A program made the position numbers. Below are positions 18,301 to 24,300 of a stretch of 64,000 bases of DNA, one piece after another; positions within the stretch are counted from its first letter, which is position 1; the number at the start of each line of letters is the position of its first letter. The stretch lies in the NCBI GenBank assembly GCA_049700835.1, contig JBNAUL010000002.1, forward strand, positions 222,999 through 286,998. The letters are read 5' to 3'. Origin of the DNA: Candidatus Woesearchaeota archaeon (GTDB lineage Archaea > Nanobdellota > Nanobdellia > Woesearchaeales > WAPY01).

Positions 18301-21300
18301 ATAGTATAGCTAAGTTTTTTGAGCTGATTTATAAAACTTTCTAAAACAATAAAAATTATAAGAATTATATAAAAAGAAATTAAATACTTTATTGACTGAC
18401 AATATTCTATGATTAAGGGAGTTGCATTTGATGCAGGAGGAGTTTTGTTAGTTACAGGAGAAACAAGTTTAAAAACAGAAAATTTATTTAAAAAATATTT
18501 TCCAGAAATAAGGTATGAGCGTTACATGAAAAATTTTAGGAGATTCAAAAATAAAGCTCAGAAAATAAAGGGATATTCCTTTAAAACTGCTGTTGAGGAA
18601 TGCTTAAAATCATTAGGCATCAAGGATAAAAAAAGAATAAGGGCTTTCAGCAATAGAATTATAAGAATAAAACCAAAAATAATAAGAGGTTGCAGGGAAT
18701 TGTTTGAATTCATAAAAAGAAAAAAATTAAAAATAATTATTTTGAGTGACACACATAATACGAGTTCAAGCGCTCGGAAGTTCTTTAAACTCAAGAACAA
18801 AAAAATCTCAGAAATGATTGATTTTATAATAACTTCAAAGGATGTTGGATGCAAGAAGCCCTGCTCTAAAATACTAAGGTATGCTTGCAAAAAGTCAGGG
18901 CTGAAGAGAGAAGAAATTCTCTTCATAAGTGACAGCATGGAAGAGATTTCAGGGGCAAGAATTTTTGGGTTTAAAACGATTTTGTTCTCAAACAAAAACA
19001 TAAGCAATGCTCTTTATCTAAAACCCATAATTGAAAAATATCTTCACTCGTAAATTTTCATTGATGAATAAAAAATAGATGAGAAACAAAAAAACAGACA
19101 AGAAACAGACAAGAAACAAATTTTATAAAATTAAAATCCTAAATTTATTTTTTAAGTTCTCTTTTCACTCCTTTTCAATTTTCATAACCAAACTTATTTC
19201 TAGCAAGTTAAGAGTATTAACAATAATTACTACTAATCTTGTCAATAGTATTATCTCATGCCTTTCAAGATTCTTGTTTTTCAGGAACATTTCATTGTTC
19301 TTTTCAAAGATTTCTCTTCTTAAAGAATATATAGAGTTTATCTTATCGCTGTTGTAAGTGTAAAAAATCTCGTATGCCAATCTGAATGTTTGGTTGATTT
19401 TTGAGAATATTTCAAGGACTTCTCTTCTTACTGGTTTGCTGAAATAAAATAACTCTTTTGTCAGATACCTGTACACATGGATTATTTCTTCCAACTGCGT
19501 AAGGTAATTGTAGAGAAGGGTTGTTTTCTTGTAATCATAGTAGCCATATTTGCTCAACAGCCTCAAGCAATAGTAGATTAACTTCTCTATCGTGTCGTGC
19601 TTATCGTAGAGCTGTATTTGTTTAAGCTCTTTTATCGCATTGTAGCTTTCATTTCCCATCTCTAATATTAGTAAGAATATTCTCCTCATTATGTTATCAA
19701 ACTCCTTTTCATTCGTTGTTGTAATCTCTTTTATTAGGCAGTAATTTTCAGTGCTGCTTATGATTTCAATTCCTATGAGCTTATCTACCTGGGCCCTGAT
19801 TGCGCTGTAAACAGGAACATTGTTCTTTAATTTCAAATCCCTTGTTTCTTTATTCTTGAATTTTAGTTTTATTTCTTCGTATCCTGCTTTGTATGCGCCC
19901 TTGATGCAGACCTCTATCAACTGCTTTGACATATCTGTAACATCAAGTTCTATGGATTCTATGCTGATTGGTTTTTTTGTTGAGATTACGAGGCTATTTG
20001 CTTTCTCCTCGATTTCAAGTTCTTCCCCTTTTGAGATTTTGTATTTTTCAACCCACTTCTTCGGCAGAGAAATGACAGAGGTTTTTCCGGCAAGCTGTAT
20101 AACTTTCCTTTTCATAGAGTGCAGGAAATTATTCTTAATATATAAATTTTTCTAATTATATAATTATATATTAATTTATATTTTTTAAGGATAAATTATA
20201 TATTTATCAGCACATTATTAATGATTGTTTTTCCAAAAAAAATGAAAACAAATCAAATTTAAATGGTGATTTTAATGAAAATAACAAAAAAAGATTTAAT
20301 GATCATAACAGAATTGAGGAGAAACGCAAGAGAAACGCTTACAAGATTGAGCAGAAAAACAAGAATACCAATATCAACGATATTCGACAGGTTAAAGCTA
20401 CAGGAAGGAGAACTCATTAAAAAGCACTGCGCCTTAATAGATTTTCAGAAGATAGGATTTTCAATAAGAGCTAACATCCTTATAAAGGTCCCTGTTGAAC
20501 AAAGAAACAGGTTAGTTGAGCACTTGCAGAAAGAACTCCACATCAATACTGTGCTTAGAATAAACAATGGATACGATTTTTTGGTTGAAGCGCTTTTCAG
20601 GACTTTAAAAGAGGCAGAGGGCTTTGTGAATAAGCTTGAAGAAGAATACAAGATAGAGGATAAAAAGGTCTTTTATGTCATCGATGAGATAAAGAGAGAA
20701 GAATTTTTATCAAGCCCTGTATTTGCTGATATGCTCTTTTAACGATATGCTCTTTTGAAATTCTCATAAAAAACAAAAAAACAAAATAAAAAAGAAATTA
20801 AAATGCTTTTTTAGGACAATCTTTTACCTGGTCAGAGCACTTTTGCAAGTAGAAACATTTTTGTTTCATAAGCTCAGAAATTTCTTTCCCATATCTAGGA
20901 ATTTCAGAAATTTTATTAACGAGTTCTTGCGTTAAATATTGCATCTCCTTCTTTGCAGTGGCACATAATCTTTCTCCAGAAAGCTTAATAAGATTATACC
21001 CATCAAAATTTTCATAAACAAAAACCTTTAACCCATGAGGCAGAACTATGTTTGCAGACATTGGATCTGTGTTATATTCATTTATTAGTTTATTCCAAAA
21101 ATTTAACAACATCTCATAATCCTTTGCAAATATTTCTGCTTTACCCTTTAATGCTTCTGGGTAAGTAAAAAGTTTTGCTGAATCTAAATTTTTATTAACT
21201 GCTATTTTAGCAGCAGCTCTTTTAGCAGCACAAACTAATGGTTCATATTGTTTTGGAACTGTTCTGTGCCTTGTTTCTTGATGCAATAATGACAAATCCA

Positions 21301-24300
21301 CAACTCTCAAAACTTTTACATTTATTGTTTTCAACACATCATACATGTTCTTTTTTAGTTTATTTTCTTTGCTCTTCAAAGTTTCAATTATTTTTTCAGT
21401 TCCATAATTTTCTATAACGTGCAAAGGGTCTGAAATCTCTAGAACAACAGCATTTCTTATAACATTTCTTATAGGAGTTTCTGTATGTGCTCCGTAAGCT
21501 CTAAGCAGTATCTCCTCAAGTTTTTCTGTTGCTCCATTCTCTGGCAAAAATAAACTTCCAGATGGAAAATGTTGAAGTTGATCGTAATTCGTATTCCACT
21601 TTCTTACCAATAATTTGTTTTTTTGTTGCAGAACATCAAAAATTTTGCTTGAGTATTCAAAAATAGCATCTAATCCTCCTCTGTCATTAATTATTTTTTC
21701 TCCTTTTGAATTAGATGTTATTCCTGATTCAAGGAACATCTGCCAAAAAGCTCTCAATGAAATATCTGCTGTTAAGGAAGTCAATAAACTCAATGGCTGA
21801 ATGTACATTGCATCTTCTCTGTATTTTTTCCTTTCCTCTTCATCAAAACATTCTAATAATTTATTATAATCCTCATTAATAACAGCTATTATTGAACTGT
21901 ACTCCTTCATTATCCTTTCATTTTTGGAAAACTCCTTTGGAATGAAATAAGCATTGTGTTCTATTCTCCTTGTGGATTTTTGAAGCAAGGAAACGCCTCT
22001 TTCAAATGTTGTCAGCCACAGAGTAAAAATTCTTGGAGCAATTAAACTGATTCTCTCAGTTATCAAATCTGCTGCTGCATTATGGCCCTTTCCAAGAGAG
22101 TTCTCCAGAATCCTTTCTACATCTTCTTCTCTTAATTCTTCTACATATTGATTGTAAGTCCCTATTCTTGATGTCTGCTTCAGGGCAGCAGAAAGTTCTT
22201 GTAATTTCTTATAACCGTTTTTGTCACTAAAGTTTTCAGTTTCATGAATAGTTATTGGCCTTAAACTTTCATCCTTTTCTCCAAGCTGTTCAAGCTCTTC
22301 AAGAGTAAAAAGATTTTTGTCTTTAAAATAAGGTTCTATTTTTTCTACAAGAGTTCCAGGAAATGTATATATTTTAATCTCAGAATTGTTCTTAGAAGCT
22401 TCAGATTCCATAAGACCACCCAGCTTATAGACACCATAAAAAGATTATCTTTAAATAATTTTTGTTACTTAAAAAGAATTATTTTAAAATTAGCATTTGA
22501 TTATAAATATTGTATTATTGTAAAACAGAATTTTTTTATATTAGTGAAAATTATTTTTTAAAGGGTGATTCAATGGCAAGGCCAAGCTGGGATGAATATT
22601 TTTTAGGAATAGTTGACAGTGTTGCTCAAAGAGCAACATGCGACAGGGGAAAATCTGGGTGCGTTGTTGTCAAGGACAAGAGAATTCTAACAACAGGATA
22701 TGTCGGGGCTCCTTCTGGACTTCCTCATTGCGATGAAGTCGGGCATATGCTCAGAAAGTCAGTAGACGAAAATGGCGAAATAAAATTGCACTGCGTTAGA
22801 ACAGTTCATGCAGAGCAGAATGCTATCTGCCAAGCAGCAAAGTTTGGAATTTCGCTGCAAGGAGCAACTATTTATTGCACAATGGTTCCCTGCTTTACCT
22901 GCGCAAAATTGATTGTTAATGTAGGAATTAAAAGGGTTGTTTGCAAGTTTAGGTATCATGCTGATAAAGACACAGTAGAATTGTTCAAAGAAGCAGGGGT
23001 TGAGCTTGAGGTAGTTAATGAAAAGGTTTTAGAATATGAGAACCAATCTTCAGGAAAGATTTAGTTTGAAAGATTAAAAAACTTTGAAGATTAAAAAACT
23101 AAAAACTGGTGGGGCTGTTGGGATTTGAACCCAAGCCACTAGGTCCCGAACCTAGGATACTACCAAGTTATACTACAGCCCCAAAACAATCGCAAAACAA
23201 TCAAAACGAATTAAAATGAATTCTTGATTTATATAAAAACTTTGTTCTTCAGAACAGAAGAAAAGAAGAGAGAGCAGCAAGAAGCACATGACAATCTCTG
23301 CTATACACATTGCTATGAAAACCATTATTGTTTCCACTAATTAATAACAAAAATAATAAAATTTAAATATGGATTTATAACTACACTTCATAAGATGAAT
23401 GAAGACTATTCCCTTAGAGAAAGTGAGATTGAAGATTTTCTGAAAAGTTTTTGGAACGAAAAGGAAAAATACTTTTTAAGAAAACCTTACATTGTTGAGT
23501 TTGCAGGCCCTCCAAAATCAGGAAAATCAACTTTGATAGATTCCATAAAATACAAATTTAACGATTATGGGATTATACCTGAGGTTTCCATTGATTCTGT
23601 TGTAAAAAAAGAAGATAGTTTAGAGTACATTGTAAATTCACAAGCAAAAACAAGATTGAGATTACTAGAAGCAAAATGCAGGAGGAATGAAGAAATAATT
23701 TTTATTGACTGCGGAGCTTTCAGCGAGTTGGCATTGCTTGATGCGTATAAAAAGGATAAAAAGATAAAGAAGGAACAGGAATGGATTTACAAAAATTTGA
23801 GAAATCAGATACTTTTTGATTTTGTCTATGAGGATATGGTAATCTATGTGTGTATACCTTTGAAAGAAGAAAACAAGAGAATAGAAAACGAGGTTAAAAT
23901 ATTCAGCCATAAAAAAATGTATGAAAGGAGTATAATAAATCCTAAATTCATAGAAAAATTTAACTTAACTTATGAGAATGTTTATAAAAAAGAACTTATA
24001 GTTCAAAGATTAAAAGAAAAAATGAAATTTATAATGATTGAAGGAAGCAGAGCAGTGAATGAAAACATTGAAATAATAATGGAAGAGATAAAAAGCGAAT
24101 TCTACAATAAGGGTTAAAAAGCAAAAGCAAAAAGAAAAAAACATTTAAAGAGGCTAAAAAACTGAAATTAAAAAAATTAAGCATAACCCTGTTTTGACTC
24201 AAGTTCAATCTCAACTTCTTCAAGTCCTGCCTTTTTGGCTTTAAGTTTTGGCAACTTCTTCTTGTAAATCAAATAGATTATGCAAGCAAAAACAAAACTG

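Follow-up and report, generated by a model that had tools for sequence, protein, structure and literature searches.

The window, which is the whole 64,000-nucleotide stretch of DNA analyzed here, comes from a Candidatus Woesearchaeota genome of 1.07 Mb (completeness 98.66%) and carries on its minus strand a gene for a protein with two ThyX folds, transcribed divergently from a dCMP deaminase gene (Table 1). The open reading frame is real, with the coordinates and length that a preliminary description of this DNA had given it, and the deaminase lies where that description placed it. The gene had also been named as the only thymidylate synthase candidate, and searches of the genome indeed returned no other Thy1 protein and no ThyA. 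The P-loop protein encoded beyond the deaminase is possibly a nucleotide kinase of the dTMP pathway. A thymidylate kinase and SufBD are encoded in the genome; SHMT, FolD, GcvT, and DHFR were not found in searches of it, which leaves the usual methylene donor without a visible source.

Table 1. Genes and protein segments at the tandem thyX locus (positions in the window)
Feature	Position	Strand	Basis and remarks
Tandem ThyX gene	20798..22411	-	537 aa plus stop; open reading frame, Pfam Thy1 in two stretches, the genome's only Thy1 match
N-half ThyX fold, aa 32-280	21572..22318	-	VIA-align, hhalign, column counts
Linker between folds, aa 281-318	21458..21571	-	Lower model confidence; lies between two aligned ranges
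C-half ThyX fold, aa 319-505	20897..21457	-	VIA-align, hhalign, column counts, codons checked
C-terminal tail, aa 506-537, with C519, C525, and C532	20801..20896	-	Translation, conservation
dCMP deaminase, divergent from thyX	22510..23064	+	PF00383, E = 7.3e-25; would supply dUMP
P-loop protein after the deaminase, weakly kinase-like (AAA_28, dNK)	23395..24117	+	Weak Pfam matches, all below cut-offs

Two ThyX folds in one chain

The presence of two ThyX folds in one chain, as first proposed, is borne out by Pfam, by an AlphaFold2 model, and by structural alignment with VIA-align. The Pfam family Thy1 (PF02511) matches the protein in two stretches, one in each half as previously noted, scoring 72.3 bits (cut-off 24.8), and it also matches all 53 members of a set of diverse relatives. 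The model, computed from the 53 sequences, has a pLDDT of 90.1 and a pTM of 0.91; confidence falls in the linker region (pLDDT blocks of 76, 66, and 59 across aa 291-320) and is 97, 91, and 81 across aa 511-537 of the C-terminal tail. Residues 32-280 align with Mtb ThyX (3hzg_A; Z = 14.1, rmsd 2.5, 200 residues) and residues 319-534 with Helicobacter pylori ThyX (3ah5_A; Z = 11.5, rmsd 3.2, 190 residues), and hhalign relates the N-half and the C-half to single-domain ThyX with E values of 1.1e-29 and 8.4e-30, respectively.

The Foldseek matches to ThyX reported earlier recur with a probability of 1.0 and target TM scores of up to 0.74, as does the empty phmmer result: a single-sequence search of the PDB reaches no solved ThyX. 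The profile of the tandem family matches 23 distinct PDB sequences (best E = 2.6e-21), 22 of which were deposited as thymidylate synthase or ThyX, the remaining one being the ThyX-fold methylase PolB.

Complementary loss of motif residues

Translation with checked codons places the residues of interest at H110, S146-T147-R148-R149, R381-H382-R383, E480-R481, C483, C519, C525, and C532; the numbers in the preliminary description are correct for the first half (H110, S146-R149) and one too low throughout the second. The complementary motif loss that it proposed is present in 7 close and 53 diverse relatives, with the N-half lacking RHR and the C-half lacking the S..S.R part. The RHRxxSxxxxSxR motif is thus whole in neither half and complete only across both, as S141..S146-x-R148 in the N-half and R381-H382-R383 in the C-half. 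More broadly, the N-half retains H110, R127, S146, R148, and R220 and lacks the RHR triad and the R174(Tm)-equivalent arginine; the C-half retains Q378, R381-H382-R383, R481, and C483 and lacks the GH segment.

Among the 53 diverse relatives, whose identity is as low as 18-20%, the retained residues are conserved in the N-half (R148 in 53, H110 in 52, S146 and R127 in 51 each, R220 in 41) and in the C-half (R381 and R481 in 53 each, H or Q at 382 in 51, R383 in 49), counts that, like those for covariation, overstate the support because the sequences are related and not independent. The counterpart positions in the opposite half are variable or deleted in the same alignment. Several canonical positions differ: that of the Mtb tyrosine "lid", Y108, is R149 here (R in 35/53, F in 7/53), that of Mtb S71 is A112 (A in 27 and S in 25 of 53), and M202 stands at the position of R147(Tm). 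A shifted arginine is suggested by position 198, which holds R or K in 18 of the 24 sequences that have no R at position 202 and in 4 of the 29 that do.

Assignment of the halves to the subunits of a tetrameric ThyX

According to a review (PMC6514825), site 1 of Mtb ThyX takes from subunit A the RHR triad (residues 95-97), with R95, and R199; from subunit B, S71 and R190; and from subunit C, R87, S105, R107, and Y108. An excerpt on PBCV-1 ThyX (PMC3498832), with Q75 and R182 from one monomer and S88 and Q89 from another, agrees with this scheme. By sequence alignment, not superposition, Mtb R87, S105, R107, and R190 correspond to R127, S146, R148, and R220, and Mtb R95-H96-R97 and R199 correspond to R381-H382-R383 and R481. 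Each of these FAD- and dUMP-contact equivalents occurs once per chain. The C-half holds subunit-A residues only (RHR and the R199 equivalent), and the N-half holds those of subunit B (the H69/S71 region and the R190 equivalent) together with those of subunit C (the R87, S105, and R107 equivalents). The earlier proposal of a pseudo-dimeric ThyX whose halves give different parts of the site is supported by this mapping onto the three-subunit Mtb scheme, in which the roles A, B, and C are assigned from the alignment and the review excerpt.

On this assignment, the C-half would supply the subunit-A part, with the RHR triad holding the FAD phosphates and dUMP and R481 polarizing the uracil, and the N-half would supply the B and C parts, with the GH segment and R220 serving FAD, and R127, S146, and R148 serving dUMP. 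As the B and C roles belong to two subunits, a complete site would need one C-half and two N-halves, and hence two chains. The enzyme would then be a dimer of tandems imitating a ThyX tetramer, in which two of the sites would be live and two dead; active sites would probably number half of those in a usual ThyX, and each chain would be expected to bind one FAD. We consider it likely that the gene encodes a functional flavin-dependent ThyX that converts dUMP to dTMP and has this organization, with two fused folds dividing the site residues.

A single chain could instead work alone as a pseudo-dimer with one internal site and no tetramer-like dimer, and the pTM of the model does indicate that the halves are placed with confidence relative to each other within one chain. 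We regard this arrangement as unlikely, however, as the FAD-side (B) and dUMP-side (C) residues come from different subunits in the scheme excerpted from PMC6514825, whereas both lie in the N-half here; having one N-half, a lone chain could not fill both roles unless its geometry differed from that of every solved ThyX.

The four-cysteine motif

The preliminary description listed four invariant cysteines. The number holds, with C483 and C525 present in 53/53 sequences and C532 in 52/53, but C519 itself is present in only 37/53. In all of the other 16 (15 with G, 1 with A), two cysteines rather than one follow C525, so that the count of four is kept by a ligand swap. C483 lies two residues after R481, and the other three cysteines lie in the tail; the four together are a candidate site that most likely would hold a metal.

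The cluster had been described as an addition to the tandem protein, a claim that does not stand: the same motif, R-x-C ... C-x4-5-C-x-E-G-x3-C, is carried by all 120 of the closest homologues of a single-domain ThyX and matches the C-half column by column. It would have been inherited from a large subfamily of single-domain ThyX. No mention of a metal site in any ThyX came up in our search of the open literature.

A more far-reaching and doubtful proposal is that the four cysteines hold a redox-active [4Fe-4S] cluster that feeds the flavin, in a ThyX branch that is independent of NAD(P)H. If so, a low-potential donor such as ferredoxin would pass electrons through the cluster to the flavin, from a site kept only in the half from which the live sites receive R481 and the FAD-holding RHR, and a large, unstudied branch of single-domain and tandem ThyX would consist of iron-sulfur flavoenzymes. 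In genomes like this one, without SHMT, FolD, and GcvT, the source of the methylene group would then also be something other than methylene-folate made by enzymes; according to PMC8316439, T. maritima ThyX uses formaldehyde directly in vitro (KD 20 mM).

Relatives and genomic context

The preliminary description knew only six relatives, from Woesearchaeota. The count agrees with a word-indexed search (7 matches, including a near-identical copy) and fails in an exhaustive one, which yields 59 clusters at 50% identity (E<=1e-3); eight short matches of 127-334 aa, possibly fragments, were left out of the set. Nor is the form a rarity confined to Woesearchaeota: the Atlas contains 30 clusters of the family, with labels that include Nitrososphaerota, Bacillota, and Saccharimonadota (taxon labels come from the Atlas and three source names only), and, within the same order, a tandem ThyX is present in 20 of 41 searched genomes, a count that includes G000. 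A related-loci search with the 7-sequence alignment gave two Woesearchaeota loci only, and the 53-sequence alignment contained no segment with sufficient conservation for such a search. Shorter or split tandem forms did not appear at E<=1e-5 in a word-indexed search, which is not proof of their absence, and domain envelopes against the single-domain profile are ragged or missing in many sequences.

The same archaeal order contains a second tandem subfamily (L005-L012, L020-L024) that shares the architecture and the polarity of losses but lacks the cysteine motif and retains the R165(Tm)-equivalent arginine in its C-half. S146, R148, R381-383, and R481 are invariant in its 10 sequences. Between the Cys-bearing and Cys-less subfamilies, an N-half is matched better by an N-half (N-N, E = 3.8e-27 vs. 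N-C, 6.1e-14) and a C-half by a C-half (C-C, 1e-18 vs. C-N, 1.2e-9), the same polarity in both; these are profile-profile scores, and the single-domain sample is one narrow clade.

A dCMP deaminase gene adjoins tandem thyX in the window and at L006, L008, and L015, and is divergent from an adjoining single-domain thyX at L004. A thymidylate kinase gene adjoins tandem thyX at L008 and L012, and at L006, L008, and L005 the deaminase has an AAA_17/18 kinase domain either fused to it or next to it. SHMT adjoins Cys-less tandem thyX in two genomes (G010, G012) and lies ~1 kb away in a third (G031), with one 145-aa open reading frame between. SHMT is present in 0/7 Cys-bearing and 6/13 Cys-less tandem genomes; as five of the seven Cys-bearing genomes belong to one family, no conclusion is drawn from this association.

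The context bears on the possibility, which we judge quite improbable, that the protein is a ThyX-fold enzyme for another substrate, such as a PolB-like UMP/dUMP C5-methylase or another pyrimidine-modifying enzyme. The model fits PolB from Streptomyces cacaoi about as closely as it fits true ThyX (VIA-align Z = 13.7, Foldseek E = 6.6e-5), the curated thyX equivalog TIGR02170 (NCBIfam) is matched over aa 373-503 only and below its cut-off (35.7 vs. 87.9 bits), and the missing source of methylene-folate would also suit a different substrate. For a PolB-type enzyme the picture is mixed, with a like fold but a dTMP-synthesis context and no biosynthetic cluster for a nucleoside antibiotic. The tandem ThyX is, however, all that could carry out an essential step in a genome that is 98.66% complete and encodes a thymidylate kinase, and related tandem genes lie beside those for dCMP deaminase, thymidylate kinase, or SHMT. 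Tandem thyX and full-length ThyA are mutually exclusive among the 41 genomes searched, where 10 relatives have full-length ThyA and none of the 10 has Thy1, and every residue listed as contacting dUMP in Mtb ThyX is retained. A decaying or regulatory relic without catalysis, in a cell that scavenges thymidylate from a host, might be suggested by the small genome, the lack of detected folate one-carbon enzymes, and the departures from canonical ThyX residues, but is very improbable given the intact frame, the catalytic arginine and serine invariant across 53 sequences of such low identity, losses that are strictly complementary rather than random, and the conserved synteny with dCMP deaminase.

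Discussion

ThyX is a drug target, and mutagenesis together with crystal structures of homotetramers has shown that three subunits build its active site. A natural sorting of the three roles into two fused, non-equivalent folds would be an independent, evolutionary confirmation of that architecture. A dimer of tandems with the predicted two sites, and no symmetry-related duplicates, would also be a ready-made system that eases kinetics and spectroscopy of the half-reactions and of inter-site communication. The conserved four-cysteine motif is also present in many genes for single-domain ThyX and suggests a cofactor or a structural metal, and a sole thymidylate synthase candidate in a near-complete genome without recognizable one-carbon folate enzymes raises the question of where such reduced archaea obtain the methyl carbon of thymine.

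The ThyX of chlamydiae, an assayed enzyme, likewise has about twice the usual length. The preliminary description regarded both the form and its division of labor as new. For the form, a single precedent came to light: a duplicated ThyX of Chloroflexi has been in print since 2009 (Valas and Bourne, PMC3224940), mentioned in one paragraph as uncharacterized and with no residue analysis there, and likened here by description only. For the division of labor, our search of the open literature returned no paper that deals with residue complementarity in a tandem ThyX. The tandem form is widespread yet, so far as our search shows, uncharacterized.

Single-domain ThyX with four cysteines (e.g., L004:1468-2196 in the relative G022) has nearest homologues with the source names Deltaproteobacteria, Nitrospirae/Nitrospirota, and Thermodesulfovibrionales. 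Its R-x-C-x-x-A ... C-x4-5-C-x-E-G-x3-C aligns with C483, C519, C525, and C532, but it has one fold with the full RHR..S..S.R motif and is therefore presumably a normal homotetramer with four active sites and four cysteine sites. The RLCATA segment of the tandem ThyX contrasts with RASEHA in the Mtb and C. glutamicum enzymes and RADSHA in that of T. maritima, all three of which lack the four cysteines.

With the homotetrameric ThyX/FDTS enzymes of T. maritima (TM0449), M. tuberculosis, H. pylori, and PBCV-1 (A674R), the tandem ThyX has in common the fold of each half (Z = 11.5-14.1), the Thy1 family, the FAD- and dUMP-contact residues, and the dTMP-synthesis context. It differs in having two folds per chain, neither with the whole motif, and a predicted two sites per four folds, whereas the homotetramers have four.

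A tandem ThyX of two complete folds

The window encodes an intact and probably active ThyX, its activity being predicted, of a tandem type that is uncharacterised but widespread (see the table of features below). Two stretches of the ORF match the Pfam family Thy1 (72.3 bits, cut-off 24.8), but its score with the curated thyX equivalog TIGR02170 is only 35.7 bits (cut-off 87.9), with a match limited to aa 373–503.

A word-indexed search returned seven proteins of 509–556 aa, one of them named Woesearchaeota, and an exhaustive search of 1.84 billion representatives yielded 59 clusters at E ≤ 1e-3, mostly with lengths of 415–555 aa; 21 of the clusters pass E ≤ 1e-10, and 10 pass E ≤ 1e-30. 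Fifty of the 59, the query and two of the word-indexed proteins make up an alignment of 53 sequences, all of which match Thy1; P0002, which is nearly identical to the query, and eight shorter sequences (127–334 aa) are omitted from it. An AlphaFold2 model with this alignment as input has a mean pLDDT of 90.1, well above the 75 in the preliminary description, and a pTM of 0.91. The top Foldseek matches of the model are ThyX chains (probability 1.0, target TM ≤ 0.74), and VIA-align places two complete ThyX folds in the modeled chain. Residues 32–280 superpose on Mycobacterium tuberculosis ThyX with a Z-score of 14.1 (rmsd 2.5 Å, 200 residues aligned) and on Thermotoga maritima ThyX with a Z-score of 13.5; residues 319–534 superpose on Helicobacter pylori ThyX with a Z-score of 11.5 (rmsd 3.2 Å, 190 residues aligned). 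As reported before, a single-sequence phmmer search of the PDB finds no ThyX. The family profile matches 23 distinct PDB sequences (best E 2.6e-21), of which 22 are deposited as thymidylate synthase or ThyX and one is PolB, a methylase with the ThyX fold.

Features of the thyX region (window coordinates)
Feature	Position	Strand	Remarks
Conserved downstream genes	18409-20742		Order shared with L015:3613-5878, a Woesearchaeota locus with 50% ThyX identity
Tandem thyX ORF	20798..22411	-	Intact, 537 aa
dCMP deaminase	22510..23064	+	Divergent from thyX; PF00383, E 7.3e-25
tRNA-Pro(CGG)	23107-23182	-	Between dCMP deaminase and P-loop ORF
P-loop ORF	23395-24117	+	Weakly kinase-like; after dCMP deaminase
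Five further tRNA genes	605, 25752, 30894, 31225, 49534

Active-site residues are divided between the two halves

Positions were mapped by aligning the family profile to M. tuberculosis and Corynebacterium glutamicum ThyX, and then by aligning a single-domain ThyX from a relative of the same order (L004:1468-2196, genome G022) to the ThyX proteins of M. tuberculosis and T. maritima. Index positions in the M. tuberculosis chain are identical with the published residue numbers; those in T. maritima were lowered by 12, an offset that sets the RHR..S.R motif at residues 78–90, as named in PMC3498832. The residue numbers of the preliminary description hold for the first half; those of the second were each one too low and should read R381-H382-R383, E480-R481, C483, C519, C525, and C532.

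Column counts over the 53 sequences bear out the earlier proposal that motif loss is complementary between the halves. The N-half keeps H110 (52/53), R127 (51/53), S141 (30/53), Q144 (45/53), S146 (51/53, the other two being Thr), R148 (53/53), and R220 (41/53); the place of its RHR motif (aa 135–138) is variable, and that of the uracil-polarizing arginine is held by Glu, Met, or Ser. The C-half keeps Gln or Glu at 378 (47/53), R381 (53/53), His or Gln at 382 (51/53), R383 (49/53), and R481 (53/53). Its GH segment is deleted, the counterpart of R220 is Trp or Tyr, and the S..S.R places are held by Asp, Pro, or Asn, by Ser or Pro, and by Tyr or Val.

A second tandem subfamily, which lacks the cysteines described below and is 15–20% identical to the query, has S146, R148, R381-H382-R383, and R481 invariant (n = 10). 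Profile comparison between the two subfamilies gives E-values of 3.8e-27 for N-half against N-half and 1e-18 for C-half against C-half, as opposed to 6.1e-14 for N-half against C-half and 1.2e-9 for C-half against N-half. That like halves match best fits a single duplication before the subfamilies split, with the reservation that shared losses could inflate the likeness.

In T. maritima ThyX, R147 is a ligand of the dUMP phosphate; the equivalent position in the tandem protein is M202. A helical turn before it, at position 198, Arg or Lys occurs in 18 of the 24 sequences in which 202 is not Arg but in only four of the 29 in which it is, counts that are inflated by kinship. The basic residue at 198 thus looks like a relocated arginine, judged from the alignment.

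A predicted dimer of tandems with two live sites

Each ThyX active site draws on three subunits. At site 1 of the M. tuberculosis enzyme, as described in PMC6514825, RHR 95–97 of subunit A binds the FAD phosphates and ribityl, with R95 and R199 binding dUMP; S71 and R190 of subunit B bind the same FAD; and R87, S105, and R107 of subunit C bind dUMP, which is capped by Y108. The PBCV-1 enzyme agrees, with Q75 and R182 contributed by one monomer and S88 and Q89 by another (PMC3498832). By alignment, all subunit-A residues of the tandem protein are confined to the C-half (R381, H382, R383, and R481), and all those of subunit B (the H110/A112 segment and R220) and of subunit C (R127, S146, and R148) to the N-half. 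Because B and C are different subunits, one site would take the N-halves of two chains.

For a D2 assembly whose sites are (A,B,C), (B,A,D), (C,D,A), and (D,C,B), positions A and D would be taken by C-halves and positions B and C by N-halves. Such a placement would complete exactly two sites and deprive the other two of all three residue sets, and the lost residues coincide exactly with the set that the dead sites would have used. The complementary loss fits a dimer of tandems with two live and two dead sites, and the A/B/C mapping supports the division of labor suggested earlier and makes it specific, as far as residue patterns can.

A conserved four-cysteine motif

C483 lies two residues after R481, and C519, C525, and C532 lie in the C-terminal tail. 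C483 and C525 are present in 53/53 sequences, C532 in 52/53, and C519 in 37/53. The 16 sequences without C519 (15 Gly, 1 Ala) all have two cysteines after C525, often as C-x2-C; a single cysteine follows C525 in 35 of the 37 that have C519. Retention of four ligands through this swap is the mark of a putative metal site. The genome encodes SufBD. A literature search (ThyX with iron-sulfur cluster, with 4Fe-4S, and more broadly) found no paper describing a ThyX metal site.

The single-domain ThyX of G022 carries R-T-C-N-R-A and, further on, C-x4-C-x6-C, an arrangement shared by all 120 of its listed nearest homologues and aligning column for column with the C-half. The preliminary description was correct that the motif is conserved, but not that it was added: being shared with this group of single-domain ThyX, it was inherited and kept only in the half that would serve as subunit A of the live sites.

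Distribution of the tandem form

Thy1 is matched in 23 of 41 genomes of the same order, including this one, by 20 long tandem frames, two single-domain genes (244 and 247 aa), and one cut fragment. The tandem forms fall into the Cys-bearing subfamily (seven genomes: this one, G001, G002, G004, G005, G017, and G035) and the Cys-less subfamily (13 genomes). An ordinary single-domain ThyX replaces the tandem form at L003 (G006) and L004 (G022). That of G022 shares 60–76% identity with the homologues listed for it; among these, the few with a source name are labeled Deltaproteobacteria, Nitrospirae/Nitrospirota, or Thermodesulfovibrionales, which suggests gene transfer from bacteria into this archaeal order.

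In the ESM Atlas, 30 neighboring clusters have at least 50 members each; the representatives of the three examined are 441–514 aa long, and their taxon labels include Nitrososphaerota and Bacillota. A structure search there also returned a 769-aa Saccharimonadota cluster in which a single chain combines thymidylate kinase with a tandem-ThyX-like part (query TM 0.65).

Genomic context of thymidylate synthesis

The genome (1.07 Mb, four contigs) is rated 98.66% complete. Whole-genome searches gave no match to ThyA (PF00303; control matches in 10/14 known genomes) and no Thy1 match beyond the tandem ORF, in agreement with its earlier designation as the only thymidylate synthase candidate. A thymidylate kinase is encoded. 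Thy1 matches are absent from all ten relatives in which ThyA is full-length (E < 1e-50). Tandem thyX adjoins dCMP deaminase here and at L006, L008, and L015, thymidylate kinase at L008 and L012, and SHMT in G010 and G012; in G031, a single 145-aa ORF separates it from SHMT, which is located ~1 kb downstream. The neighbors, the exclusion of ThyA, and the thymidylate kinase fit a predicted working thymidylate synthase.

Partial ThyA-family matches (model positions about 85–230, E 1e-13 to 1e-21) occur in relatives with and without ThyX, among them G003, G009, G010, G011, G021, G023, G025, G031, G032, G034, G035, and G039, in open frames whose lengths range from 188 to 666 aa, with many around 220, and some with in-frame stops; this genome has none. 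The P-loop ORF may encode a nucleotide kinase that acts in dTMP synthesis. In relatives, dCMP deaminase carries a fused AAA_17/18 kinase domain at L006:2309-3352 and, judged by eye, in a 345-aa ORF of similar length at L004:348-1385; at L005 and L008 the kinase domain is a separate gene beside the deaminase. The conserved genes downstream of thyX are an Lrp/AsnC-like ORF of 159 aa, a gene for a protein of 316 aa whose N-terminal domain is of the MazE/AbrB type, and one for a HAD hydrolase.

SHMT, FolD (C-terminal domain), GcvT, and DHFR have no match in this genome, with control matches in 10–14 of 14 genomes, so that the usual source of methylene-tetrahydrofolate is not visible. A relative's SHMT used as query likewise found nothing here or in G001, G004, G005, or G030. 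Direct use of formaldehyde by T. maritima ThyX is possible in vitro, but the KD is 20 mM (PMC8316439). SHMT was found in 0/7 Cys-bearing versus 6/13 Cys-less tandem genomes, a skew that may reflect ancestry only, five of the seven being one family.

Comparison with other duplicated ThyX

Among open papers, our search found no analysis of residue complementarity in tandem ThyX. Chlamydial ThyX, likewise about twice the usual length, has been assayed. Duplicated ThyX, described there as uncharacterised, has a precedent in Chloroflexi (Valas and Bourne 2009, PMC3224940).
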